A stretch of DNA of 64,000 nucleotides from an uncultured Candidatus Saccharibacteria bacterium (GCA_964610335.1 CAZSVP010000003.1:13531-77530), one strand, 5' to 3'; numbered from the stretch's first letter, positions 28,843-54,042 are shown. Numbers and translations: made by a program. Notes: a model not told the origin generated them from the sequence alone.

Positions 28843-29977
28843 GTCAGCTAGTACTGCAGCCACCAAATCAAGCCACTTGCCGCGTGGTCTTATTGTGGCT
28901 GTGGCTTTTGTGACTATTGTTGGCCTGCTTATTCACTACTCACTGGGGTTACGGGGTGGCACATTTATACTGAGCGATTTCTACCGGCAGTCTATTGCGG
29001 CGGCGATCGGGGCGGTGGTGCTAATACTACTTACCAAACTTGATTACAGGATATTCAAGGACTATGCCAACTTGCTGTACATCATAGCAGTGGCGAGTCT
29101 ACTGCTGGTCGATGTGATCGGTGCGACGCGACTTGGTGCGACACGTTGGATTAGTATTGGATTGCTGCAGATACAACCATCGGAGTTTGCCAAGCTGTTT
29201 AGTATAATTTTCTTTGCGCAGTACATTAGCCAGCATCAGTTTGAGAGTCGATCTTGGAAAGTTCTACTCAAGAGTATTGGGCTGCTGGCAGTACCGGCGT
29301 TGTTGGTTCTGGCACAGCCTGATCTAGGAACTGCCTCGGTGTTTGTGGCTTGCTGGTTGGCAATAGTGTTGGCATCGAAACTACCCAAACTACCATTGGT
29401 TATTGTCTTACTAGTGGGCTTACTGATGCTACCGCTTGGCTACCGCTTCTTGGCGCCTTACCAAAAACAGCGTGTAGATAGTTTTCTATCGGCCCACAAT
29501 GACAAACAAGGCAGCGGCTACAATGTCAAACAGGCTCAGATAGCAATTGGTTCGGGCGGCATGTGGGGTCGGGGGTTGATGGCAGGCTCGCAGAGCGAAG
29601 GTAATTTCTTACCCAGTCATAGCACCGACTTTGTGTTTGCAGTGGTATCAGAAAAACTAGGTTTTCTAGGCTCTAGTTTGTTGGTGCTGGCACTCTACTA
29701 CATTGTGGCGCAGATATTACTGATTGGCTTCCGCGCCGCTGATTGGTTTGGCACTTTGCTGTGTGTTGGTATTGCTACCATGCTGTTTATACACGTCACA
29801 GTCAATGTTGGCATGAATCTTGGCTTGCTGCCAGTAACTGGCATCCCGCTGGCATTTGTATCGTTAGGCGGTAGTAGCCTAATAGTTATGTTGGCAAGTG
29901 TTGGGTTGAGTTTGAGTGTGGCGGCGCGCAGTCACCGCTTGCCGCGTTATCAAGAAGATGATCGGGTGGTGTACTAA
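28796..29977 (+). CDS. ftsW: SEDS family peptidoglycan polymerase (FtsW/RodA)
   Basis: Ten-TM profile with motifs ...GSGYNVKQAQIAIGSGGMWGRG... and ...SHSTDFVFAVVSEKLG.... The true start may be a downstream TTG or GTG, because the track ORF overlaps the ileS end by 47 bp. Confidence 0.8.
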   Translation: MAMSTSLASKSQRLAKSASTAATKSSHLPRGLIVAVAFVTIVGLLIHYSLGLRGGTFILSDFYRQSIAAAIGAVVLILLTKLDYRIFKDYANLLYIIAVASLLLVDVIGATRLGATRWISIGLLQIQPSEFAKLFSIIFFAQYISQHQFESRSWKVLLKSIGLLAVPALLVLAQPDLGTASVFVACWLAIVLASKLPKLPLVIVLLVGLLMLPLGYRFLAPYQKQRVDSFLSAHNDKQGSGYNVKQAQIAIGSGGMWGRGLMAGSQSEGNFLPSHSTDFVFAVVSEKLGFLGSSLLVLALYYIVAQILLIGFRAADWFGTLLCVGIATMLFIHVTVNVGMNLGLLPVTGIPLAFVSLGGSSLIVMLASVGLSLSVAARSHRLPRYQEDDRVVY

Positions 29978-30516
29978 TGCGACACAAGCGTAAGCTACTG
30001 TCACTATTGCCAGTGCTGCTGGTAGTAGGTACCCTGTTGATTTACCGGGGTATTGAACTAAGCAAAGCCCCACCAACTGCTAGCGCTGGTGGTGATGTAC
30101 AACTACAAAAAGCAATCGATGGTGACACTATTGAGGTGGTTGATCATGGTACCAAACATACAGTACGGTTGATAGGTATCAACACGCCTGAGACTGTCGA
30201 TCCTCGCAAGCCAGTGCAGTGCTTTGGCCACGAGGCTAGCCAAAAAACCAAGGAGCTCACAGCTGGCGGTATAGCCCGGCTCGAAGTGGATCCTCTGGTT
30301 GGCGATACCGACAAATATGGCCGCTGGCTGCGTTATGTCTACTTGCCCGATGGCAGTATGCTCAATGCCCGACTTGTGGCCGAAGGCTATGCCTATGAGT
30401 ATACTTACCAAAGTCAGCCCTACACTCACCAAGCCGAGTTCAAAGCCGCTGCCAAAGCTGCGCGTGAACAAGGCCTAGGATTGTGGAGCGATATCACTTG
30501 TGCCGGCAAACTTTAG
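29977..30516 (+). CDS. Secreted thermonuclease (staphylococcal nuclease/SNase-like) with an N-terminal signal or TM
   Basis: DGDTIEV…VRLIGINTPE…GRWLRYVY..DG..LNARLVAEGYA is the SNase fold signature. Confidence 0.8.
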   Translation: MRHKRKLLSLLPVLLVVGTLLIYRGIELSKAPPTASAGGDVQLQKAIDGDTIEVVDHGTKHTVRLIGINTPETVDPRKPVQCFGHEASQKTKELTAGGIARLEVDPLVGDTDKYGRWLRYVYLPDGSMLNARLVAEGYAYEYTYQSQPYTHQAEFKAAAKAAREQGLGLWSDITCAGKL

Positions 30517-33554: not shown

Positions 33555-34721
33555 CTAAGAGCCAACGATGTAGAGTTCTTGCTCGGCTCGGGTGACTGCC
33601 GTATATAGCCAGCGGCGCCAATCTTGCTCACTCATTTTGGAAAACCGCTCTTCAAACACTAGTACCTTTTGGGCTTGCGAGCCTTGAGCTTTGTGCACTG
33701 TAAGTCCATAGCCGAAGTCAAATAGTCCGACCAAGTCTGCCTTGTCGCGTTTGGGCGCGCGTGACATGGTAGTGGTTTCGCCAAACTGAGCCCGTGGCAC
33801 GTAGCCGTCGAAGCGCAGGCCATCGAAGTTGGCCTGCATATGCCACCATAGCTGATCAATGTCATCGTCGGCCGTAGTGATTGACTCGATCACACCGAGC
33901 TGGCCATTGGCCAAGCCACTTTCGTGATTGTTGCGCAAACACACGATGGTATCACCAGCTTTGGGCTCAGCGCCTTCAAAACCTTTGAGCTGGCGGACAT
34001 GTGCATTGAGTCGCTGGCGCGTGTGATTGTAGCCACACAGCACCATAGTGTCACTAGTGTGGGAGTGCAGTATTGCCTCTACCACATCGCCGGTTTCGCC
34101 ATTACTGCGATCGAGCTTGCGCACACTTGCGGAGTAGTCACCGATTGGGATAATGCCAGATGTGCGAGCCATAGTCGCGAGCTGGATGATAGGGCTATCG
34201 GCCGCTTGACGCCAGATCTTTTCGAGCCGCAGTTCGGGCTCATCCATGAGATTAAATGTAGAGTTGATCGGTGGTAGCTGACCATGGTCACCAACTGCCA
34301 ATATTGGCTTGTCAAAACTCAGAGCGTCGTCCCAGATCTCTTCGTTGACCATACTCGCCTCGTCGATAATTATTAGATCACACTTTAGCTCCTCGCGTTT
34401 TTTGAAGAAGAAGCCACCATCAGCCCGCTCTTGGCGACGGTACATCAGGCTATGTAGGGTACTGACAGTGTCGCTACTTTGCAGTATTTTGGCTTCGCGC
34501 AGCCGATTCTTGAGTACTAGGGCAGCTTTGCCGGTGTAGGCTGCAAAGCCCACTTTCATAGAGGGCTTGTTCTTGTGTAGCACCTGGCGCAGGGCTGCTA
34601 GCAAGGTGGTCTTGCCCGTGCCGGCATAACCACCGAGAGTGATGTACTGTTTGTCGGGATCTTTGAGCCACTGACCTATGGAAGTCAGCGCAGCGGCTTG
34701 ATCGGCGGAATACTTTTGCAT
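33555..34721 (-). CDS. Superfamily-1 DNA helicase of the RecD/Dda/TraA-like type (AAA_30 plus UvrD_C_2)
   Basis: Walker A GYAGTGKTTL, Walker B LIIDEASM, and C-terminal motifs VHKAQGSQ and TAVTRA. At 388 aa it is a small phage- or plasmid-type helicase. Confidence 0.8.
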   Translation of the reverse strand: MQKYSADQAAALTSIGQWLKDPDKQYITLGGYAGTGKTTLLAALRQVLHKNKPSMKVGFAAYTGKAALVLKNRLREAKILQSSDTVSTLHSLMYRRQERADGGFFFKKREELKCDLIIIDEASMVNEEIWDDALSFDKPILAVGDHGQLPPINSTFNLMDEPELRLEKIWRQAADSPIIQLATMARTSGIIPIGDYSASVRKLDRSNGETGDVVEAILHSHTSDTMVLCGYNHTRQRLNAHVRQLKGFEGAEPKAGDTIVCLRNNHESGLANGQLGVIESITTADDDIDQLWWHMQANFDGLRFDGYVPRAQFGETTTMSRAPKRDKADLVGLFDFGYGLTVHKAQGSQAQKVLVFEERFSKMSEQDWRRWLYTAVTRAEQELYIVGS

Positions 34722-38966: not shown

Positions 38967-39004
38967 TTCTAGCCACAACCTGACAAAGAGGGTAGAATTA
39001 AGGA

Positions 39005-41521
39005 ATGCTAACATCCGAAACCAAGAAACATATCGATGCTGCCCGCCAGGTTTTGGTTGGGAAAGTGCCGGACCCAAAACAACAGATAGATCAGATTACG
39101 AATGCGCTGATTTATAAGTTCATGGATGACATGGATATTAAAGCTAAAGATGCCGGCGGTAAAGCGTCGTTCTTTACGGGTGATTTAGAGCAATATGCAT
39201 GGACAAAGCTAATGGATCCACGCAAGGGTGCTCAGGAACGGCTCAATATGTACACTGAGGCGTTAGAAAAGTTTAGCACTGCCAATCAACTGCCGCAATT
39301 ATTCCGCGATATCTTTCGCCAGGCCTTTTTGCCATATCGCGACCCAGAAACCCTCAACTTGTTTCTAAAAGAAATTGAATATTTTGACTACAACCATTCT
39401 GAAGAGCTTGGTAATGGGTTTGAATACTTGCTAAGTATTATGGGCTCGCAGGGCGATGCCGGACAGTTCCGCACTCCACGACACATTATTGATTTTATTG
39501 TAGATATTATCGACCCAGACAAAGACGATACCATTCTGGACCCAGCTTGCGGTACGGCTGGATTCCTTATTAGTGCCTACAAACACGTAGTAGGAAAGCA
39601 CGATGGGGTGGACGAAGATGGCAAAAAGAACGAAGAAGTACCGTTAACACACCAAGAAAAACAAAAGCTCATGGGCAACCTAGAGGGTTACGACATCAGT
39701 AGTGATATGGTGAAGCTTGCCAGGGTAAATATGTACTTACATGGCTACAATCAACCCAAGATTTTTGAGTACGATAGCCTAACTAGTGAAGAGCGCTGGA
39801 GCGATAGTTTTGACGTAATCTTAGCCAACCCGCCATTTATGAGTCCAAGGGGTGGTATTCGCCCACATAATAAATTTGGCGTGGAATCTTCTCGTGCCGA
39901 AGTGTTGTTTGTTGACTACATTATGAGCCACCTCAAGCAGAATGGTCGCGCTGGTATTATTGTGCCAGAGGGCATCATTTTCCAAAGCGGCAAAGCGTAC
40001 AAACAACTCCGCAAAGCTTTGGTTGAAGATGGGCTATTGGCAGTTATTTCTTTGCCGGCTGGAGTATTTAACCCATATTCTGGTGTGAAAACCAGTGTCT
40101 TGGTCTTTGACAACAATAGCGCCAGGAAATCGAGCAGTATTCTATTTGCCAAAGTTGAGAACGACGGATTCGATTTGGGAGCACAGCGTAGGCCAATTGC
40201 CAAGAATGATTTGCCAGCACTTGCCATGCTGCTTAGAAAGTATAGAGAAAAACCCAATGCAGATATTAACTCGTTAAAGGATGAGCTTGTTAAATCCAAA
40301 GATTTTTTTACTATTGGTAAAAGCACAATAGGTGGGCAAGATGCAATCGGCTCTCCAGAAGATTTTAGGCACTTAGAAGTCGCAACAGTTAGTAGGACCG
40401 AACTCGCAAAAACAGGTGAATATAACCTGAGCGCTTCGCGCTATGTTGTTGCGGAAGTAAGTCAAAACCAAAAATGGCCGATGATTGCTATAGACGAAGT
40501 AGCTGAAGTTAAGCGTGGAACGTCAATTACAAGTCGAGATTTGCTGGAGGGTAATGTACCGGTCGTAGCAGGCGGCCAAAAACCGGCGTATTACCATAGT
40601 CAGGCAAATAGAGAGGCGCCGGTTATTACTGTTAGCGGTTCTGGTGCTTACGCAGGCTTTATTAACTACTTTACAGAGCCAATATTTGTTTCGGATTCTT
40701 CCTCTGTCAAGTCAAGTAATGAAAATACGGTATTAACACGCTACCTCTATTGGGTACTTAAAGGTAACCAGGAAAAAATTTACGCTTTGCGAAGCGGAAT
40801 GGCGCAACCACATGTCTATGCTAAAGATTTGGCTAAATTCCAAATTCCATTGCCGCCGATTGAGGTGCAGAAAGAAATTATTGCTGAATTAGATGGCTAC
40901 CAAAAAATCATCGATGGAGCCCGCCAAATCATTGAAATCTACAAGCCCACGATAAAAACTGATCCTGCTTGGGATGTTGTAAAACTTGGTGATATTGGTC
41001 CAGTTAGGATGTGTAAAAGAATATTGAAACACCAGACTACCAATAATAATACCGATATACCGTTCTTTAAGATTGGTACATTTGGCAAAAAGCCTGATGC
41101 ATATATTCCACAGAATGTTTACCAAGAATATAAATCAAAATACCCATTTCCCAATAAGGGCGACGTTTTGATAAGTGCATCTGGTACTATCGGAAAGACT
41201 GTTGTTTATGACGGTAAACCAGCTTATTTTCAGGATAGCAATATCGTCTGGATTGAAAACAACGAAAAACGAGTTACCAATTCCTACTTAAATGTAGTAC
41301 TGCAAAGCATAAAATGGAATGCTCAAATAGGAGGGACTATAGCACGACTATATAACGATATTATTATGAATACTGAGGTAGTCTTGCCACCCATTGGAGT
41401 ACAGCAACAGCTTACTAAGGAGTACGATGAAGAAGCTAGAATAATTGACGCGAATAAAAGACTGCTTAAGATTTATGAGCAAAAAATACAGGACAAAATC
41501 GCCGAGGTTTGGGGAAATTAA
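39005..41521 (+). CDS. hsdM: Type I restriction-modification methyltransferase fused to the specificity subunit (HsdM-HsdS fusion, two TRDs)
   Basis: HsdM N-domain, AdoMet motif I (DPACGTAGFL), NPPF motif IV (LANPPFMSP), and then about 350 aa containing two HsdS-type target-recognition domains and conserved spacer helices. Confidence 0.85.
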   Translation: MLTSETKKHIDAARQVLVGKVPDPKQQIDQITNALIYKFMDDMDIKAKDAGGKASFFTGDLEQYAWTKLMDPRKGAQERLNMYTEALEKFSTANQLPQLFRDIFRQAFLPYRDPETLNLFLKEIEYFDYNHSEELGNGFEYLLSIMGSQGDAGQFRTPRHIIDFIVDIIDPDKDDTILDPACGTAGFLISAYKHVVGKHDGVDEDGKKNEEVPLTHQEKQKLMGNLEGYDISSDMVKLARVNMYLHGYNQPKIFEYDSLTSEERWSDSFDVILANPPFMSPRGGIRPHNKFGVESSRAEVLFVDYIMSHLKQNGRAGIIVPEGIIFQSGKAYKQLRKALVEDGLLAVISLPAGVFNPYSGVKTSVLVFDNNSARKSSSILFAKVENDGFDLGAQRRPIAKNDLPALAMLLRKYREKPNADINSLKDELVKSKDFFTIGKSTIGGQDAIGSPEDFRHLEVATVSRTELAKTGEYNLSASRYVVAEVSQNQKWPMIAIDEVAEVKRGTSITSRDLLEGNVPVVAGGQKPAYYHSQANREAPVITVSGSGAYAGFINYFTEPIFVSDSSSVKSSNENTVLTRYLYWVLKGNQEKIYALRSGMAQPHVYAKDLAKFQIPLPPIEVQKEIIAELDGYQKIIDGARQIIEIYKPTIKTDPAWDVVKLGDIGPVRMCKRILKHQTTNNNTDIPFFKIGTFGKKPDAYIPQNVYQEYKSKYPFPNKGDVLISASGTIGKTVVYDGKPAYFQDSNIVWIENNEKRVTNSYLNVVLQSIKWNAQIGGTIARLYNDIIMNTEVVLPPIGVQQQLTKEYDEEARIIDANKRLLKIYEQKIQDKIAEVWGN

Positions 41522-41555
41522 GCGTTTACACAATTAACGATTGGGGTTTAACGTA

Positions 41556-42980
41556 CTATTTATCCCCTTGAGGTGCTTTTCTGGAGTTCTCAACAATCGA
41601 GCCAGTCATATTTATTAGTTCTTTTGGAGACATAAAATCAAACATTATCCTCTGCCAGGTACCACCAAATATTGCACAACTCATAACTTTACCATCAATT
41701 TTTGCTGTGATAACAGGAACCTTATTATTACCGAATAACTCACGTAAGAGCGGGTCGGCATATTTTTGCTCGTAAGAGCTCATATTTCTAGTTTCAAAAT
41801 CAAAGCCGTTTATTTTCATCAAGTGCTTGAGGGCAGGTATGTGTAAATATACTAGCAAAAACTCCTCTCCTGCCATTAACTTGCTTTGTCTTTGCATGCC
41901 TAAAGTTTCAGAAAACAACAAACTTCTAGGTTTGATTGTTTGGATGCCCATCATATGTTGTAGCGCAAAGACGGGTAGCTTTTGTGCTTGTTCCGCTATC
42001 AAACCTAAATCATAACGCTCGTTAATTCTAAACCTAAAGAACCGCTCGTCTATACTTGTTAATGGCTTACTGCCGTATGCAAAGAAAATACAATAGTCTA
42101 CCAACCCAGTAGCGTATTTAGCACCGTTAGTTTCCATATCTTTTATTACACTTCTGACGGCTACAGACCAGCTCTTTTCATCACGCTTCTCTTCTAGTAT
42201 TGTTATATTTTCGTCCGTTTTGATATTGGTACGTACTTTACTACCCCAGCCACGATACTTGAGCGCGGTACTAGCTCTTTGATGTTGACGTAAAGTTCTG
42301 GTTACTTGTTTGGAGGTTTCAATAGGATTTTTAGACCTGGTTAGCAAGGCCTCGGCCTTTGTTTTGAACTCCTCTATATCTTTACTCGAAAAGGTTTCAA
42401 GTATTTTGAAGTTTACTTCGCCGGTCTTTACCTCTATTAGTTGATTTACCCCAGTTTTGGTATTTAAGCAATAAAAGTCGCATATTTGAAAGAAACTCGT
42501 TAAATCTGTCGCAAATGCGAATTGATTAGGGTCTTTATTAAAGTGGTCGAGTGATTTTTGTATACTCCGCCAGTTTTGCACCTCTAAAGGGCTATGCTTT
42601 TTAGGCTCTAGAAATACGTTCCTAATCGCACTAATATCGTGTTTTAGCATTATCCAAGCAATGCAGTCAGCATAATCTCTCAGAAGGGCAAAAATGTAGT
42701 GTTCATTATATGGCTTTTCAAACTCTAAGTTTTTGGATTTTAGGGCTTTCTCTAGTTTTAAGCGTTCCTTAATAATAATCTTCTGGGCTTCTTTGTATGA
42801 CCAATTTACGAAAGTACTAAACTCTATCCGCTTTTCTTTGGTGGCAAAAATAGAGTGAGTGATTTTAGGGCTTAACTCCTTAATACCATTTACTTGTGCA
42901 TACTTTTCGAAACCGGCACTAAAGCAGTATTTGTTAAGATCGCGAATGATTTTATGGACGTACTTTTTGGATACCAGCAT
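41556..42980 (-). CDS. Unknown 474-aa protein co-oriented with hsdR and 10 bp downstream of it. It has a possible PD-(D/E)xK-like motif, and an R-x4-H (HEPN-like) dipeptide pattern is present.
   Basis: AT-rich ORF with no P-loop. Candidate motif …ATDL…CDFYCLNTKTGVNQLIEVKTGE (D…(14)…E-V-K after a hydrophobic strand). RTLRQH is present. Its position is inside the RM locus. Confidence 0.55.
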   Translation of the reverse strand: MLVSKKYVHKIIRDLNKYCFSAGFEKYAQVNGIKELSPKITHSIFATKEKRIEFSTFVNWSYKEAQKIIIKERLKLEKALKSKNLEFEKPYNEHYIFALLRDYADCIAWIMLKHDISAIRNVFLEPKKHSPLEVQNWRSIQKSLDHFNKDPNQFAFATDLTSFFQICDFYCLNTKTGVNQLIEVKTGEVNFKILETFSSKDIEEFKTKAEALLTRSKNPIETSKQVTRTLRQHQRASTALKYRGWGSKVRTNIKTDENITILEEKRDEKSWSVAVRSVIKDMETNGAKYATGLVDYCIFFAYGSKPLTSIDERFFRFRINERYDLGLIAEQAQKLPVFALQHMMGIQTIKPRSLLFSETLGMQRQSKLMAGEEFLLVYLHIPALKHLMKINGFDFETRNMSSYEQKYADPLLRELFGNNKVPVITAKIDGKVMSCAIFGGTWQRIMFDFMSPKELINMTGSIVENSRKAPQGDK

Positions 42981-42990
42981 TCAAGGCTCG

Positions 42991-45468
42991 TTAATCCACA
43001 ACTTTTTCTAGCACATAGTCGCGGGCGTATTCAGGTATGCGTTTGCGGAGGGATTCGGGCAAATTAGTCCATTCGTCCATTTTGAGCCCTGTAAAGTTTA
43101 ACTCGGCAAAGCGTCCACTATCGATTAGTTCACGTACGTGTGGATCGGTTGCATACGCCGTAAATACATCGCGAGCAGAGCTGTACTGTCCAGGCTCTAC
43201 ACCTTCGTTCTGTACAAACTCTTCAAATTCATCGAGCACAACTTCGTCTTTGCTTTGGAAATTGTCTCTATCGCCAAAAGCAAATTCTAATATTTCTTTA
43301 ATATTTGGGCGCCGATCTAACTTAAAGGCTTTTTTGAACTGGTTGCGGCTAATAAATAGGTTCGGCTTATCAAAGTGTTTTTCAACTACAGCTTTTTCGG
43401 CGCCATATACGTCTCCAGATCTGTAAAGCTCGGCGACTTCTGTATCTGCAGCAATTGCTTGCTTGGCTTTTTCGCCCCAAACTTCTCGGTCTACCCGCAT
43501 ACCTTCAACACTAATTTGCTCTTCTTTGATCGTTTTGAGGTAATCTGCCCGGGCGGCATCGAGTTCCTCTGTAATATAGCGCTTCGTGCCCTCTGGGTCT
43601 TCGGTATTTTTGGTGCCAACTGTTGGGGGTAGCTTGAGTTGTTCGTCATAATTAAACTTTTCTTCAAAGTATTCACATACAGCAAAGAAATCAAAAAGCT
43701 TATAAGCAGTTTTGTCGATAGTAATAACTTCGTTTTGCTGGTCTTCGTAATTAAATTTGGCACGCCTAGTACCGCGGCCTTTCATCTGGATAAAATCAGC
43801 TGGGCTAAAAACTGGGCGCATGAAGGCTACATTTAGTAGGTCCGGGCAATCGTAACCAGTGGTCATCATACCAACCGTTACACAAACACGGGTACGGCTA
43901 GATTTGTAGGCATCTAAAAATCGAGTAGTGCCATTGAGGTTATTATTGGTAAAATTTGTGGTCATGTTTTGGCTGGCTTCGACATTGCTAGTAACTTGTA
44001 CGGCAAAGTCAGAGCTATATTTGCCGGGCCACTTCTTATCTGCGATTTGGTTTAATAGTTGAGTGATTTTGCTAGCGTGAGTTTGGCTTACGCAAAATAC
44101 CAAGCTTTTGCCTACTTCTTCGCTAATAGGGTCGCGCAGGGTGTTGTCTATAAAAGCTTCGCAGAAAGCCACGTTGGTATTTTCATTAAAGAATTTACGC
44201 TCAAAATGTCGGCTAAAGTATACCTGCATTTCTTCGTTACCTTCTTCGTCTTTGCGGTTAACTTCGTAGCCCTCTTCGCTTAAAAGCTGGGTAGTGATTT
44301 CTGTGCGGGCATCCACAACCGTTGGTTGGATAAGGTAACCTTCTTTGGCGCCACGTTTAAGATCGTAGCGGTAGGTGGGCTCGCCACTGTCGCAACCAAA
44401 CGTTTTGTAAGTGTCGAGTAGCTGGCGCCGCTCTTGGTCTTTTTGAGTTTCTTTATTATCTTCGGTGTTTTTAAGATAGTCTTTGGGCGTTGCAGTTAGC
44501 CCAAGTTTGTAACCTATAAAGTATTCAAATACACTACGCGAGTTACCGCCAATAGAGCGATGGGCTTCATCCGATATTACTAAGTCGAAATCTGTTGGAT
44601 CAAACTCCCTTTTGTAGCGATCACCAGCCATAAGGGTTTGAACTGTAGAAACAACAATGCTGGCTTTGCGCCAATCGTCTTTGTTTTCTTTGTAAATACA
44701 AGAAATAAAATCGTTTTTAATATCCTTAAAGCCTTTAAGTGCTTGGTTTTCTAATTCAATTCTGTCTACCAAGAACAGTACGCGGCTGGCATTGCCAGTG
44801 TGGAGAAAAAGTTTGGCAATAGCTACGGTTGTTAGAGTTTTGCCAGTACCAGTAGCCATCTCGAGCAGATATCGCTCTTTGCCGTTTTTTGCAGCCTCTT
44901 GAATTGCATGGATAGCCTCAAGTTGATAATTACGTAAAAACTTTAGTCCATGACGGTCGTTGAACGCCAGACGTTGATTGCCGTCTGCTAACCAATCTGG
45001 GTCTTCAGCGTAATTTGGCATTTGCGTTAGGGCAATATAGTCTTCACTAACTTTTTCAGCTGCCAGTACTTTGTGATCAGGTTTATAATTTTCTAAATCG
45101 AGCAGTGATTTTTGCGAAGGGTAGTCAGTAATGAGTTTCTCAGTGCCGTGCTCAGTGTCCCAAAAGTAGTGGATATTGCCGTTGCTTAAAATAATAAAAC
45201 GAGCTTTGTTATTGCGTGCATATTCACGTGCCTGTTCTTTGCCGTCAAGTGGGTTCTTACCTTCTCGCTTGGCTTCAAGTACAACTAGCGGAAAGCCTTT
45301 GTCATCCAGGAGAAGATAATCAATAAATCCATTTTTGGTATGCTCAAAATCCTCGCCGAGGTCATCGAGCTTAACACCAGCTTCAACTTTGATGCTTTTC
45401 TCAAACTCCCAGCCTGCTTCTTCTAGGAGTTTGTTAATTTTTATTCGAGCCGAGGCTTCTTTACTCAT
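42991..45468 (-). CDS. hsdR: Type I (or Type III-like) restriction enzyme R subunit: an N-terminal PD-(D/E)xK nuclease plus an SF2 helicase
   Basis: N-terminal Mrr/HsdR-type nuclease (…VLEAKREGKN…), Walker A MATGTGKTLT, DEAH box VISDEAHRS, and helicase motifs VI QMKGRGTR. Confidence 0.85.
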   Translation of the reverse strand: MSKEASARIKINKLLEEAGWEFEKSIKVEAGVKLDDLGEDFEHTKNGFIDYLLLDDKGFPLVVLEAKREGKNPLDGKEQAREYARNNKARFIILSNGNIHYFWDTEHGTEKLITDYPSQKSLLDLENYKPDHKVLAAEKVSEDYIALTQMPNYAEDPDWLADGNQRLAFNDRHGLKFLRNYQLEAIHAIQEAAKNGKERYLLEMATGTGKTLTTVAIAKLFLHTGNASRVLFLVDRIELENQALKGFKDIKNDFISCIYKENKDDWRKASIVVSTVQTLMAGDRYKREFDPTDFDLVISDEAHRSIGGNSRSVFEYFIGYKLGLTATPKDYLKNTEDNKETQKDQERRQLLDTYKTFGCDSGEPTYRYDLKRGAKEGYLIQPTVVDARTEITTQLLSEEGYEVNRKDEEGNEEMQVYFSRHFERKFFNENTNVAFCEAFIDNTLRDPISEEVGKSLVFCVSQTHASKITQLLNQIADKKWPGKYSSDFAVQVTSNVEASQNMTTNFTNNNLNGTTRFLDAYKSSRTRVCVTVGMMTTGYDCPDLLNVAFMRPVFSPADFIQMKGRGTRRAKFNYEDQQNEVITIDKTAYKLFDFFAVCEYFEEKFNYDEQLKLPPTVGTKNTEDPEGTKRYITEELDAARADYLKTIKEEQISVEGMRVDREVWGEKAKQAIAADTEVAELYRSGDVYGAEKAVVEKHFDKPNLFISRNQFKKAFKLDRRPNIKEILEFAFGDRDNFQSKDEVVLDEFEEFVQNEGVEPGQYSSARDVFTAYATDPHVRELIDSGRFAELNFTGLKMDEWTNLPESLRKRIPEYARDYVLEKVVD

Positions 45469-45519
45469 GTGTTATATAATACAGTAATGTTGAAAGAAGT
45501 TGAAAGTTACTGGTGACCA

Positions 45520-46050
45520 GTGCTAAAAAGTAAGTACAAACCACAATTAGATAGAGGTGAGGATGGAAAACCACTGCCCACCCTTCGAAACAGAGAAATA
45601 TTTGAAGAGTTAGAGAAAGAACTAGGTAGCAAAGAGGTACTCAAGCGATACGAGCGTGACTATTCGGATTATGCGCAGAAAGTTACGTTTGATCCGCGTA
45701 AGCCCAATGTATTCTTTCGCACCGAAGAGCAAGCCCAAGCAGCCAACAAATATATACATATGCTCAACGAAATGGATTTAGACTATATTGATAGTCGCAA
45801 GACTGCGAAAGATCCGTACTACAAAGCCAATAAGGAACGGCTTGCAAAAATGTCCGATAAGGAGTTTGTAGCTGAGTTCAACAAAGGTGTGAACAACAAG
45901 GAGTGGTCTAGCTCGCATGCAATTTACCTATCACTCATATACGATGAGCTAAACAAACGAAAGTATGACTACTCTGCTATCAGCGTCGATGGTGGTTTCA
46001 AATTTGATAAGAAGATCAAACTAGATGGCAAGAAAATCACAGTATTGTAA
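45520..46050 (+). CDS. Hypothetical protein (AT-rich, divergent from hsdR)
   Basis: 176-aa ORF starting at GTG, Lys/Glu-rich, with no known motif. Confidence 0.4.
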   Translation: MLKSKYKPQLDRGEDGKPLPTLRNREIFEELEKELGSKEVLKRYERDYSDYAQKVTFDPRKPNVFFRTEEQAQAANKYIHMLNEMDLDYIDSRKTAKDPYYKANKERLAKMSDKEFVAEFNKGVNNKEWSSSHAIYLSLIYDELNKRKYDYSAISVDGGFKFDKKIKLDGKKITVL

Positions 46051-47429: not shown

Positions 47430-49136
47430 ATGGCTGCATCAAGCAAACCAAGATCCAATACCTCAAAAAAACCCACTAAGGGTGCTGGTTTTCAGTTTCG
47501 ATGGTGGATGGTGGCGGTACTAGTAGCCGCAGTAGCAGTTATTGGCATAGTGGTTATACGGTTTAGTCGAGCTGGTATAGACTCGGTGATTCTTAGAAAT
47601 CCCTATGAGGCTCACAACTATGGGGCAGCTGCGTTGCAAGAAGGCAACACACATCACTTCTTCTGGTGTGGTTGGAACACTTACCTCGATGCTGAGGGCA
47701 AGCCACAACAAGAAGAAGTGGTCTATTATCAAAGCCAAAATGGATTTAAAGGGCAGACTACCCAGGCTTATCCTACTATTAGCTCACGCAAAAAAAGTGG
47801 TGGCTGGGAAAACGGCTCTCACATGTGCGACCCCACAATTGTAATAGGTAGGTTTAACTATAAACAGAACACCTATAAGTATGCCTTGTACTACGATAGC
47901 GACCCCGATAACTCATCGAGACGTACCAAGATCGGGGTGGCGTTTACCAACGCTCTTTCTCCGGACCCTAATCATCCTACGCAATGGACGTTTGTAGATC
48001 ATCCAATAGTTTGCGAGTATGGCCCCAACAAGGACTTTTATGGAGTTGGCACTAGTAGCGCTATTGTTGACCCTAAAGATCCAAGTAAGGTGCAATTATT
48101 CTTTGTCGATACCTCTCATACATCTCCCAGCCTGCCCAACGATAAGCGATCTCAGGGCTTTGTGGTGACTGGCACAAATGGCTATGATTTTGGGTGGTCG
48201 GGCAATTGCCAGCTGTCTCCTAGCGCACCAAAGCCTAAAGCCATAAATACCAACAACCTAAATACCACTGCCTATGGCGACTTTAGCTATGACAAACAGA
48301 ACAATTGGTACTATGGTGTAATAGCCGATGGTGGTGCCATCCGCCAACCAATTCGTGGTGAGGGCGACCCACCTCTAGACCAAGGATTCTACTCTGAGTC
48401 TTATCAACAAATAATAGCTCGCATTCGCCCCGAGGCCTTGGTGGACTCTACCAAGGGTGGCTGGCAGATATTGGGTCATTATAACTCCGATTCCACCAAG
48501 AGTGCGCTCAACTTCAACCCGGGAATTTTACGCAATCCAAGTGGGTACTTGGACAACGAGGTAGCACCACTAATCGATGGTGTGCGAGAACTGTATATAT
48601 GGAATACCCAAATAGTACCAACTAACTTGGCCAGTGGCAGCGAAGATGCCAGCAATGATAGTGGTTTGCAAACCAGTGAGATCAGGCATACCAAGATCAA
48701 GCTGTATGTCTGGACTCCGGGGCGAGTACCGTTGGTAAGATACCTCGATACTACGACCGGTGAGCACGCTACTACCGAGAATGTTAAGCCAAAAGCCACC
48801 TACAAGTATGACAATCAGATCTTCTATGTATTGCCAGATCCCAATGGCATGACTGGCTGGCAGCCAATCTACTCGTGTGTTACAAGTGGTCCGTATGATT
48901 ACTTTCTCTCTACTCATGCCAACTGCGATGGGCATTTGCAACTAGGGCTTGTAGGCTATAGCTTTACTGGAGCTAATCCGCCCAACCTACCGGGGCGTTG
49001 GGTAAGACTCTACCGTTGCTGGTCAATAAACGGTAGTGGTGTAGGCGAAAACTTCATGACAAGCAGCCCACAGTGTGAGGGTAATACAAACCCAGTAGAT
49101 GCATCGTACGGCTGGGTATCTCTGGACCAAAAGTAA
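47430..49136 (+). CDS. MPAKSNVR-family paralog 4: the same basic-plus-TM N-terminus fused to a large extracellular domain of about 520 aa
   Basis: N-terminus MAASSKPRSNTSKKPTKGAGFQFRWWMVAVLVAAVAVIGIVVIRFS matches the family N-terminus. The long C-terminal domain has no recognisable catalytic motif. Confidence 0.6.
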   Translation: MAASSKPRSNTSKKPTKGAGFQFRWWMVAVLVAAVAVIGIVVIRFSRAGIDSVILRNPYEAHNYGAAALQEGNTHHFFWCGWNTYLDAEGKPQQEEVVYYQSQNGFKGQTTQAYPTISSRKKSGGWENGSHMCDPTIVIGRFNYKQNTYKYALYYDSDPDNSSRRTKIGVAFTNALSPDPNHPTQWTFVDHPIVCEYGPNKDFYGVGTSSAIVDPKDPSKVQLFFVDTSHTSPSLPNDKRSQGFVVTGTNGYDFGWSGNCQLSPSAPKPKAINTNNLNTTAYGDFSYDKQNNWYYGVIADGGAIRQPIRGEGDPPLDQGFYSESYQQIIARIRPEALVDSTKGGWQILGHYNSDSTKSALNFNPGILRNPSGYLDNEVAPLIDGVRELYIWNTQIVPTNLASGSEDASNDSGLQTSEIRHTKIKLYVWTPGRVPLVRYLDTTTGEHATTENVKPKATYKYDNQIFYVLPDPNGMTGWQPIYSCVTSGPYDYFLSTHANCDGHLQLGLVGYSFTGANPPNLPGRWVRLYRCWSINGSGVGENFMTSSPQCEGNTNPVDASYGWVSLDQK

Positions 49137-49438
49137 TGGCTAACGTTATGAAAAGATATCATGGATTTGTTATGACTAGCTTGAAGTCGTTTGGTAAGTA
49201 CCCATACAGGGCATTTGGTTGGTTTGAGCTCGACGACGATAAGTTGCGCTACTGGCAGTTTATGGGCGAAAAGGGTGAGGTGGTTTACAAAGATATCACT
49301 GGTTTTACGCTACATTGGCAAACGGTGTATCTCAAACAAGCAGGTAAGCAAGAACTATTGGGGTTCGGTAGTACTATCAACAAGAATAAGGTTATAGCAG
49401 ATCTTATTGACCATGGTGTCAAACAGCTGCAGGAGTGA
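49136..49438 (+). CDS. Hypothetical 100-aa protein translationally coupled to paralog 4 (taATGg overlap)
   Basis: The ATG overlaps the stop codon of the previous gene. No motif was found. Confidence 0.45.
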   Translation: MANVMKRYHGFVMTSLKSFGKYPYRAFGWFELDDDKLRYWQFMGEKGEVVYKDITGFTLHWQTVYLKQAGKQELLGFGSTINKNKVIADLIDHGVKQLQE

Positions 49439-52387: not shown

Positions 52388-52521
52388 AATAAGCTACCAT
52401 TTCTGTTGTCGGCAGCATTGTGAGAGCTTCGACGTCGGTTAGTTTAAGTCTATTATACACCAGATCGCAACAGATAGCGAACCAATATCGACTTGGTGGC
52501 TTATTTGCTACAATAGCAGCC

Positions 52522-54042
52522 ATGGCTATGCAACTCAGCAAATCCGACTACATGATGTATCTCAAACAGCCGGCTTGGTTGTGGCTCAAGAAGCACGACA
52601 AGACTAAGTTGCCCGAGCCCGATGCCAACTTGCAGGGCATGTTCGACGAGGGCAACTTGTTTGAGTCTATCGTGGAACAGCGCTTTGTAGGCTTGCGCCG
52701 ACTTGGGTTTGAGAGCTATCAAGAATATTTGAGTTTGCCCAAGCGGACAGCCGAGGCAATTGCTCAGGGTGAGCGGCTGATATCGCAGGGCCGGTTTGAA
52801 CATGAGCAGCTCACCTGTATCTGTGATGTCGTAGCAGTGGTGGGCGAGCACCAGTTGGAACTAATTGAGATCAAGGGCAGCACCAAGGTCAAGCCTGAGC
52901 ATCTCGACGACCTGGCCTTTCAGGCTGTGGTGCTAGAAGGAGCTGGCTTTGAAGTGCTAAAGTGCAGTGTGGTGTACTGCAACAACCAATATGTTCGCCA
53001 CGGCGAGATCGAAGCCGACAAGATAGCGATTGAGAAGGATGTGACTGAGCATGTACTCAACAAGCGCGAGGCGACGCGGCGCGAGATCGACAAGGCCCTC
53101 AAGGTCATGGCAAGCAGTACTATGCCCGATCCATCACCAGCCCGAGCCCGCGGCGGCGGCTTTCGTGAATGGCTGGAGATATATCTGAGTCTCAATCAGC
53201 CTGAGGGTGATCATCATATCTATCAGATCTGCCGACCCAATGCCCAGTTGCTGGCCGAGCTGGAAAGTCGTGGTATCAACGCAATTGCTGATATCCCCGA
53301 CGACCTCGAGCTCCATCCGGCTCAGGCGCGCCAAGTACAAGTCACCAAACTGGGTCAGCCAGTGGTACATCAGGCCAAGATTGAGAAGTTTCTCAATGGC
53401 TTTGAGTATCCGCTATACTTTCTCGACTACGAAACCCTGGCTTCGGTGATACCGCCATTTGATGGTTTGCGACCTTATCAGCAGTTACCGTTTCAATACT
53501 CTCTACACATACTCGAAGCTCCAGGCGCTGATCTACAACATCGTGAGTATCTGCACGAAGAGTCTGACAACCCAGCCCCGGCACTGCTTGCGCAGCTCAG
53601 CGGCGACATCGGCCCACGTGGGAGTGTGGTGGTATGGTCGGCTAGTTTTGAAAAGGGCTGCAATGAGCTGATGGCACAACTATGGCCCGAACATGCTGAG
53701 TTTTTGGAACAACTAAACGCCCGGGTGGTGGACCTTATGGATCCGTTTATGCGTGGCTGGTATGCAGACTGTAACTTCTATGGCAGCGCTAGTATTAAGA
53801 AGGTGTTGCCCGTGTTGGCACCAGAATTGAGCTACAAGGAGCTCGGCATTCAAGAGGGCGCTAGCGCCCAGCGCCGCTGGATGCAAACAGTACTCGGAGG
53901 CGCCAGCGACGGCAAGTCACAGCTCATGTCTGAGCTGCGTGAATACTGTGCCCTCGACACTCTAGCGATGGTAAAGATCTATCAGTACTTGCAATCACTT
54001 GGCAAGGGTACTGGTACCAAAGAGCAACTAAGCTTGTTTTAG
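52522..54042 (+). CDS. DUF2779-type protein: an N-terminal PD-(D/E)xK (Cas4/RecB-like) nuclease plus a C-terminal RNase-H-like exonuclease domain
   Basis: …QLELIEIKGSTK… nuclease motif and C-terminal …YFLDYETLASVIPPFDGLRPYQQLPFQYSLHI…. The ATG at 52522 lies 8 nt after TACAAT, so the transcript may be leaderless. The track ORF starts at 52420. Confidence 0.65.
   Translation: MAMQLSKSDYMMYLKQPAWLWLKKHDKTKLPEPDANLQGMFDEGNLFESIVEQRFVGLRRLGFESYQEYLSLPKRTAEAIAQGERLISQGRFEHEQLTCICDVVAVVGEHQLELIEIKGSTKVKPEHLDDLAFQAVVLEGAGFEVLKCSVVYCNNQYVRHGEIEADKIAIEKDVTEHVLNKREATRREIDKALKVMASSTMPDPSPARARGGGFREWLEIYLSLNQPEGDHHIYQICRPNAQLLAELESRGINAIADIPDDLELHPAQARQVQVTKLGQPVVHQAKIEKFLNGFEYPLYFLDYETLASVIPPFDGLRPYQQLPFQYSLHILEAPGADLQHREYLHEESDNPAPALLAQLSGDIGPRGSVVVWSASFEKGCNELMAQLWPEHAEFLEQLNARVVDLMDPFMRGWYADCNFYGSASIKKVLPVLAPELSYKELGIQEGASAQRRWMQTVLGGASDGKSQLMSELREYCALDTLAMVKIYQYLQSLGKGTGTKEQLSLF

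Follow-up and report, generated by a model that had tools for sequence, protein, structure and literature searches.

Results

Organization of the locus

We analysed orf474, a gene encoding a protein of 474 amino acids (aa) that lies within a Type I restriction-modification (RM) locus of an uncultured Candidatus Saccharibacteria bacterium (GCA_964610335.1 CAZSVP010000003.1:13531-77530). The whole 64,000-nucleotide stretch of DNA is referred to here as the window, and positions are counted from its first letter. The locus contains an hsdM-hsdS fusion gene (838 aa; 39005-41521, plus strand), orf474 (41556-42980, minus strand) and hsdR (825 aa; 42991-45468, minus strand). Our list of open reading frames (ORFs) reproduced all three genes exactly, with orf474 at the size, coordinates and strand given in the initial annotation.

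The 838-aa protein has a Pfam N6_Mtase domain followed by two Methylase_S target-recognition domains, contains the motifs DPACGTAGFL and NPPF, and matches MTase_I (E = 1.1e-93) and Specificity_I in PADLOC; these matches identify it as a fusion of HsdM and HsdS. In the 825-aa protein, Pfam recognises the domains HSDR_N, ResIII and Helicase_C, and PADLOC gives a match to REase_I (E = 3.9e-64). Its translation holds its own D...EAK nuclease motif together with GTGKT and DEAH, all intact, and its score against the NCBIfam EcoAI model (225 bits) is far under the cut-off of 550.

On the minus strand the junction between hsdR and orf474 reads TAA-cgagccttga-ATG, so that 10 nt (42981-42990) separate the hsdR stop codon from the orf474 start codon. 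The start codon is correctly assigned, because the N-terminal sequence MLVSKKYV aligns with MKVTKKYV of the homologues. Inspection of the spacer revealed neither a promoter-like nor a terminator-like site, and the two genes are thus probably co-transcribed. The hsdM-hsdS gene is convergent with orf474, the stop codons being 34 bp apart. The RM genes, orf474 and a 176-aa ORF occupy an AT-rich island (39000-46050), as had been proposed; the GC content is 0.378 in orf474, 0.430 in hsdR and 0.422 in hsdM-hsdS compared with 0.51-0.53 in the flanks. A tRNA scan and a repeat search identified no tRNA and no convincing flanking repeat at the island edges, and no integrase was found there.

Conservation of orf474

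Residues are counted here from Met1 of the 474-aa protein; Met1 is missing from alignment A1 and from the first structure model, whose numbers are therefore lower by one. Searches of Pfam, PADLOC, NCBIfam, PHROGs and PDB sequences, with the single sequence or with profiles, returned nothing significant for orf474. The sequence contains no P-loop, and no ATPase family was matched in Pfam, PADLOC or NCBIfam, in agreement with the initial annotation, which had recognised neither a P-loop nor any other family signature. A word-indexed search of 5.8 billion clusters identified 16 close homologues (37-66% identity), and scans for this close clade located 4 loci in metagenomes and 2 in genomes. When 1.84 billion representatives were searched exhaustively with a profile, the superfamily grew to 563 representatives at E ≤ 1e-3 (383 at E ≤ 1e-10), mostly of 430-490 aa.

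The alignments of the superfamily identified a small set of strictly conserved residues. D159, D168, E183, K185, G187, R228 and Q232 are 100% invariant in 139 relatives and also in a set of 88 divergent relatives that are pairwise less than 40% identical and have a mean column identity of 23%. T161, G167, N190, Q225, W109 and Q66 are conserved in at least 90% of the family. D159, D168, E183, K185 and G187 fall in one block, D159-LTSF...(G/C)D168...E183-V-K185-x-G187-xx-N190 (42411-42506, minus strand), which includes the motif CDFYCLNTKTGVNQLIEVK, that is, D168-x14-E183-x-K185. The D-x14-ExK pattern had been singled out in the initial annotation as the shape of a nuclease core; because its residues are invariant among the relatives, it is a genuine family signature and not a chance occurrence.

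A second pattern, R-x4-H (RTLRQH), lies on a helix that carries the invariant R228 and Q232 (42276-42299, minus strand). This pattern stands only in part. R228 and Q232 are invariant, and R235 is invariant within the close clade, but the column of H233 is variable even within the 16 closest homologues, where H, F, Y, L, Q, R and W all occur. The lack of conservation of H233 indicates that RTLRQH is not a HEPN Rx4-6H motif, and no HEPN match was found by Pfam in orf474 or in the 88 relatives; the HEPN reading was rejected.

Relationship to DS-37

A tblastn search of plasmid records gave a weak E. coli match leading to a 463-aa ORF that contains SDMSTF...GDLVTF...LVEVKTGEKN and R-x3-Q. In RefSeq this protein is WP_000982358.1, annotated as a hypothetical protein; 67 of 5426 complete E. 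coli genomes carry it. Its gene resides in a Qin-like (cryptic) lambdoid prophage, in the segment bounded by hokD and the replication genes, and starts about 90 bp after the end of an AbiH gene (Pfam E = 8.1e-69). The hhalign comparison of orf474 (alignment A1) with WP_000982358.1 gave a probability of 98.3% and E = 2.4e-14 over 375 columns, nearly the full length, and BLASTP gave 26% identity over 265 aa (E = 2e-11).

WP_000982358.1 is DS-37 (working id SC24), one of the systems found with DefensePredictor by DeWeirdt et al., Science 2026 (PMC13092281; bioRxiv 10.1101/2025.01.08.631726). Table S6 of that report lists it as a single-gene transcription unit, 'defensive TRUE' and 'Predicted novel defense gene', and HHblits did not connect it to any known defence protein (PMC13092281). 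Cloned alone, DS-37 reduced the titre of phage Bas69 from 2.1e9 to 1e5 plaque-forming units (PFU), a -log efficiency of plating (EOP) of 4.32, and that of SECphi27 from 7e8 to 8e6 (-log EOP 1.94) (PMC13092281, Table S7). In Table S8 the result is marked replicated TRUE, and residues 154-204 are labelled PDDEXK by virtue of an HHpred match to NERD (PMC13092281). These residues coincide exactly with the D...D...ExK block. The entries '210-212' and '199' in the SC24 columns of Table S8 could not be mapped onto the D/ExK residues of WP_000982358.1 and were not used. The main text assigns 13-14 of the validated systems to the PD-(D/E)XK nucleases, with catalytic residues that can be superposed on those of EcoRI (PMC13092281).

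DS-37 matches 155 of the 166 superfamily sequences that we collected, and we therefore regard the superfamily as the DS-37 family and the 16-protein clade as a divergent branch of it. The two proteins are similar in size, are encoded by single genes and share the D...D...ExK-G...N and R-x3-Q motifs; orf474 also has the architecture of DS-37 in that a single polypeptide carries N-terminal helices, the D...D...ExK core and the R-x3-Q helix. Both are accessory genes on mobile elements or islands, each directly downstream of another defence gene. They differ in that orf474 is only about 25% identical to DS-37, belongs to a rare side clade and follows hsdR in a Type I RM island, whereas DS-37 follows AbiH in a Qin-like prophage. 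The initial annotation had assigned orf474 to an undescribed family; this is not the case, as the family includes DS-37, published in 2025/2026.

The AbiH and DS-37 genes recur as a cassette with about 91% protein identity in the Qin-like E. coli prophage and in Enterobacter IncFIB-type plasmids (L024, 13009-15398; L030, 5041-7392), and conservation of the pair across prophage and plasmids suggests that the two genes move together. The same DS-37 homologue was also found by match on Klebsiella and Raoultella plasmids, the context having been inspected for Enterobacter.

Predicted structure

An AlphaFold2 model of orf474, built on a 16-sequence alignment, has a mean predicted local distance difference test score (pLDDT) of 82.4 and a predicted template modelling score (pTM) of 0.80. 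Residues ~1-125 (42606-42980, minus strand) are modelled as an N-terminal helical bundle (helices 4-29, 37-43, 47-80 and 92-110; pLDDT ~90), in which F54, K63, Q66, D105 and W109 are conserved in the family. The bundle probably packs against the core of the protein, because the confidence of the core collapses when the bundle is removed from the model.

The putative catalytic core (residues ~137-197; 42390-42572, minus strand) is predicted, with pLDDT of 58-85, to have the order alpha-beta-beta-beta-alpha: in model numbering, a helix at 136-146, strands at 152-156, 168-172 and 178-181, and a helix at 187-196. After the first helix, the acidic residue D168 begins the second strand and E183-x-K185 ends the third. 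This alpha-beta-beta-beta-alpha arrangement, in which G-D...E-V-K lies on consecutive strands behind a helix, is the classic appearance of a PD-(D/E)xK core. R228 and Q232 are placed by the model on long helices following the core. The remainder of the protein is modelled as a C-terminal alpha/beta domain (residues ~271-471; 41568-42170, minus strand) with pLDDT above 90. This is the most variable part of the family; in 39 of 133 full-length relatives the match to the clade profile ends by position 340.

Genomic context of family members

Homologues of orf474 recur in varied defence islands, prophages and plasmids. Type I RM genes adjoin the family member in 3 of approximately 17 distinct contexts, namely the window, a locus that also carries DpnII and Ymh (L007) and a locus in which the homologue lies between two Type I RM systems (L010). 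Other members are accompanied by Ymh and an integrase (L004), by Hachiman HamA/helicase and SLATT (L008), by Shedu SduA_C, a methyltransferase, an SMC-like ATPase and PLD-SNF2 (L015), by reverse transcriptases (L016 and L019), by a P4 cII-like gene (L011) or by a serine recombinase (L001-3). GmrSD_N and HEPN_RiboL-PSP lie upstream of a 22%-identical member (L020), and Mom, a solo Cas1 and a type IIG-like methyltransferase are found beside a member in an Acidimicrobiaceae genome (L013). Among plasmid-borne members, the neighbours are AbiH in Enterobacter, Abi_2 in Pantoea, and integrases or recombinases in Rahnella and Ewingella. Type I RM genes are absent near the E. coli, Pantoea and Rahnella members and near those of L004, L008, L015, L016, L019 and L020. 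The linkage to RM is thus not obligate, given its occurrence in so few of the contexts. The placement of orf474 in an AT-rich island agrees with the distribution of the DS-37 family as accessory genes.

No relatives of the family were detected in 50,697 phage genomes or in 2.9 M viral contigs (IMG/VR). A phage-borne origin was rejected on this ground, even though a cryptic lambdoid prophage carries DS-37.

DS-37-family genes are repeatedly co-oriented with, and immediately downstream of, a different defence gene. The gaps are 10 bp after HsdR in the window (42981-42990), 7 bp (L004, 9994-10001) and 174 bp (L007, 9827-10001) after Ymh, 64 bp after GmrSD_N and HEPN_RiboL-PSP (L020, 9937-10001), about 90 bp after AbiH (L024, 13917-14007) and 17 bp after Abi_2 (Pantoea plasmid; L031, 5948-5965).

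Relatives of the RM genes

The nearest annotated relatives of HsdR are 51-54% identical, and in their loci the methylase (M/S) gene directly follows hsdR. In Paracoccus pPZ02 the gap between hsdR and the methylase gene is 10 bp, and the fused M-S protein is 41% identical to that of the window over its full length; E. coli F-type plasmids also have hsdR and then the methylase gene directly, and the gaps among the relatives are 10-45 bp (L033, 5992-11125; L034, 5992-13540). Since the HsdR relatives show this order, the conserved RM unit is R followed by M/S. Neither the Paracoccus pPZ02 locus nor those of the E. coli F-type plasmids have an orf474-type gene between R and M/S. The window differs from these loci in two ways: its M/S gene has the opposite orientation, and the place after hsdR is taken by orf474.

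HsdR and a fused HsdM-HsdS of ~840-860 aa make up the two-gene family to which this RM system belongs; in the relatives both genes lie on the same strand. A gene for a TrlF-family AAA-like ATPase comes after the pair in the E. coli F-type plasmids.

Discussion

The comparisons described above identify orf474, by sequence, as a divergent member (~25% identity) of the DS-37 single-gene anti-phage family. It is very probably a defence gene, as the initial annotation had proposed, since its full-length E. coli homologue DS-37 defends alone. We think it probable that orf474 is an autonomous DS-37-type defence protein in which the invariant residues D159, D168, E183 and K185 form a site that cleaves nucleic acid.

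According to this hypothesis, orf474 would have been placed directly behind hsdR in a horizontally acquired Type I RM island, where it would most likely act autonomously as a second layer of defence and not as a subunit of the RM enzyme. The chemistry would most likely be metal-dependent phosphodiester cleavage at a PD-(D/E)xK-type site composed of the same four residues, with R228 and Q232 on the helix following the putative active site. No cognate methyltransferase or antitoxin accompanies the DS-37-family genes in the contexts that we inspected, and an unregulated DNase would be toxic; for these reasons we propose that the putative nuclease is gated, with the N-terminal bundle and/or the variable C-terminal domain keeping it inactive until a phage-derived cue is received. 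Alternatively, its activity might be restricted to a phage-specific substrate. As the least conserved part of the protein, the C-terminal domain is a candidate for sensing the cue or setting the specificity. The present data are equally compatible with abortive infection, with direct restriction and with a Type IV-like specificity.

We conclude that orf474 is cargo in the RM island and not a subunit, because DS-37 needs no partner, HsdR is equipped with a nuclease motif of its own and the GC content of orf474 is below that of the RM genes. Nor is the gene a core part of this family of R and fused M-S systems, given the related loci without it. A direct precedent is TgvAB, an independent system that lies inside the Type I RM cluster of the V. 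cholerae island VPI-2 and is far commoner outside such clusters (PMC11411939). Like orf474, TgvAB is an independent defence module within a Type I RM gene cluster; unlike orf474, it is a two-protein system of Type IV, of the GmrSD family, and the two have no sequence relationship.

Several observations weigh against the assignment of orf474 as a nuclease of this kind. None of three fold searches returned a nuclease; in the Foldseek search of the PDB with the model, no nuclease was found and the best E was 0.8. A Pfam scan of the 88 divergent members produced no recurrent family, 2 of the 88 having weak matches to SduA_C (Shedu nuclease; best E = 0.028). The core, which bears the proposed catalytic residues, is only moderately confident in the model. 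The HHpred probability of the NERD match that underlies the label given to DS-37 is just 0.47 (PMC13092281), and, in the accessible part of that report, catalytic mutants are confined to the novel-domain systems, with none found for DS-37 (PMC13092281). Finally, at ~25% identity the function of orf474 could differ from that of DS-37. Because the fold and profile searches do not confirm it, we describe the model as consistent with a PD-(D/E)xK nuclease fold, which is unproven. With NERD and Shedu (SduA_C) PD-(D/E)xK defence nucleases, orf474 has in common the G-D...E-x-K signature on consecutive strands, but there is no significant match in sequence or structure, the profile hints are the weak ones just mentioned, and those families have nothing like the N-terminal helical bundle and the C-terminal alpha/beta domain that flank the core.

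One could envision that orf474 is a modification-dependent nuclease of the Type IV kind, which would complement the Type I system by cutting phage DNA that contains modified bases, as TgvAB does in the VPI-2 Type I RM cluster of V. cholerae. TgvAB shows that an independent system can be embedded in a Type I RM operon (PMC11411939), none of the contexts provides the family with a cognate methyltransferase or antitoxin, and one relative (L020) follows a GmrSD_N gene. The phage range of DS-37, as far as it is given in the accessible part of the report, is narrow (PMC13092281). Nevertheless, orf474 does not resemble GmrSD, Mrr, McrBC or any other Type IV family and has no recognisable domain for reading modified bases (SRA, YTH and similar), and we regard this possibility as unlikely.

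Another scenario is that the invariant D/D/E/K/R/Q residues serve a different chemistry on a fold other than PD-(D/E)xK, and that defence is exerted without cutting of nucleic acid, for example by hydrolysis of a nucleotide or a signalling molecule or by nucleotidyl transfer. In favour of this view, no part of a reasonably confident model (pTM 0.80) has a fold match in the PDB, there is no significant profile link to nuclease families, and the additional invariant residues D159, G187, N190, R228 and Q232 exceed a minimal nuclease motif. On the other hand, the authors of the DS-37 study assigned it to PDDEXK (PMC13092281). The protein also shows the archetypal signature of the PD-(D/E)xK fold, namely G-D-hhh...hhh-E-V-K on successive predicted strands that follow a helix, and we accord a different chemistry a small chance of being correct.

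The coupling to RM that was suggested in the initial annotation is not supported. According to this idea, orf474 would depend physically or functionally on HsdR or HsdMS, as a guard or effector that fires when an anti-restriction protein disables the Type I enzyme, or as a second nuclease in the complex. The model for such an arrangement is PrrC, an accessory anti-phage gene in the EcoprrI (prr/hsd) Type I RM locus, the product of which is an ABC-ATPase joined to a HEPN anticodon nuclease and is restrained by the RM enzyme. orf474 resembles PrrC as an accessory gene within a Type I RM locus. The 10-nt spacing behind hsdR with neither terminator nor promoter between, the Type I RM genes next to the homologues in L007 and L010, and the frequent position of members directly behind a defence gene (Ymh at 7 bp, Abi_2 at 17 bp, HEPN at 64 bp, AbiH at ~90 bp) could all be explained in this way. 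However, orf474 has no P-loop and no conserved Rx4-6H motif of the HEPN type, HsdR carries its own nuclease, and DS-37 protects when cloned alone, in the absence of RM. Moreover, most contexts are without RM genes, and the loci of the nearest hsdR relatives have R and M/S without an orf474-type gene. Hence, we consider RM coupling to be quite improbable.

A broader form of this proposal is that DS-37-family proteins are modular 'trailing' partners, each wired to the defence gene upstream of it, be it HsdR, AbiH, Abi_2, Ymh or GmrSD/HEPN. orf474 would then be a back-up or guard of the Type I enzyme that might, for instance, fire once HsdR has been blocked by phage anti-restriction proteins, following the logic of PrrC on an unrelated protein. 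We hold this generalization to be rather doubtful.

The integrases, serine recombinases, transposases or prophage genes near many homologues would fit a role of orf474 in the maintenance or recombination of mobile elements (e.g. as a nuclease for integration or exclusion) and not in phage defence. Such a role is very improbable, because there is no fixed partnering with one recombinase or element type, the window lacks flanking repeats, the phage genomes and viral contigs contain no matches, and the homologue DS-37 was directly shown to reduce phage plaquing.

The autonomous DS-37-type nuclease therefore remains the hypothesis that we favour. The family itself is already known and validated through DS-37, which has so far been an entry in supplementary tables, shown to be defensive and without a mechanism. 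New here are the divergent, rare clade to which orf474 belongs, the residues that are invariant family-wide, the breadth of the family and its recurrent position behind defence genes. The family reaches far beyond E. coli, comprising ~563 clusters at 50% identity, including some from actinobacterial metagenome-assembled genomes. The seven invariant residues are direct targets for mutagenesis, and the family combines a conserved module of N-terminal bundle and core with a variable C-terminal domain. If it is true that the trailing position reflects functional coupling, the family would add a new case of layered or guarded immunity; otherwise it is a further instance of the accumulation of defence genes in islands.

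Additional observations

A subgroup of the family (P0039, P0083, P0088 and P0126; 658-680 aa) has an N-terminal extension of ~230 aa, which in P0039 starts with a SEC-C zinc motif (Pfam E = 0.00038). A link between this subgroup and DS-23 was considered and rejected, as the SEC-C motif of DS-23 is C-terminal and its NERD/Mrr-like core lacks the family motifs.

In the Acidimicrobiaceae metagenome-assembled genome (L013, 7124-17680), the genes flanking the homologue encode a Mom-family protein, a solo Cas1 of 560 aa and an Eco57I/MmeI-like methyltransferase of 1211 aa. On the upstream side, an ORF of 499 aa without a Pfam match stops 49 bp short of the homologue. Large proteins with no Pfam match adjoin the family gene in three unrelated defence islands, namely L004 (4859-8839, minus strand; 1326 aa), L016 (3769-6624, minus strand; 951 aa) and L007 (11547-14270, minus strand; 907 aa).

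Within the window, the 176-aa ORF of the AT-rich island (45520-46050, plus strand) is divergent from hsdR and has no Pfam or PADLOC match. The same is true of the products of two plus-strand ORFs farther downstream, of 568 aa (47430-49136) and 100 aa (49136-49438), whose stop and start codons overlap by 1 base. Three other genes of the window might belong to conflict systems. A 540-aa protein (52420-54042, plus strand), whose gene overlaps one called as DUF2779, has a weak Cas4-like match; a PIF1/RecD-like helicase (33555-34721, minus strand) matches the candidate system PDC-M16A (E = 1.8e-46); and a 179-aa protein (29977-30516, plus strand) matches C3a212 'SNc+LTD' in PADLOC (E = 8.9e-41).

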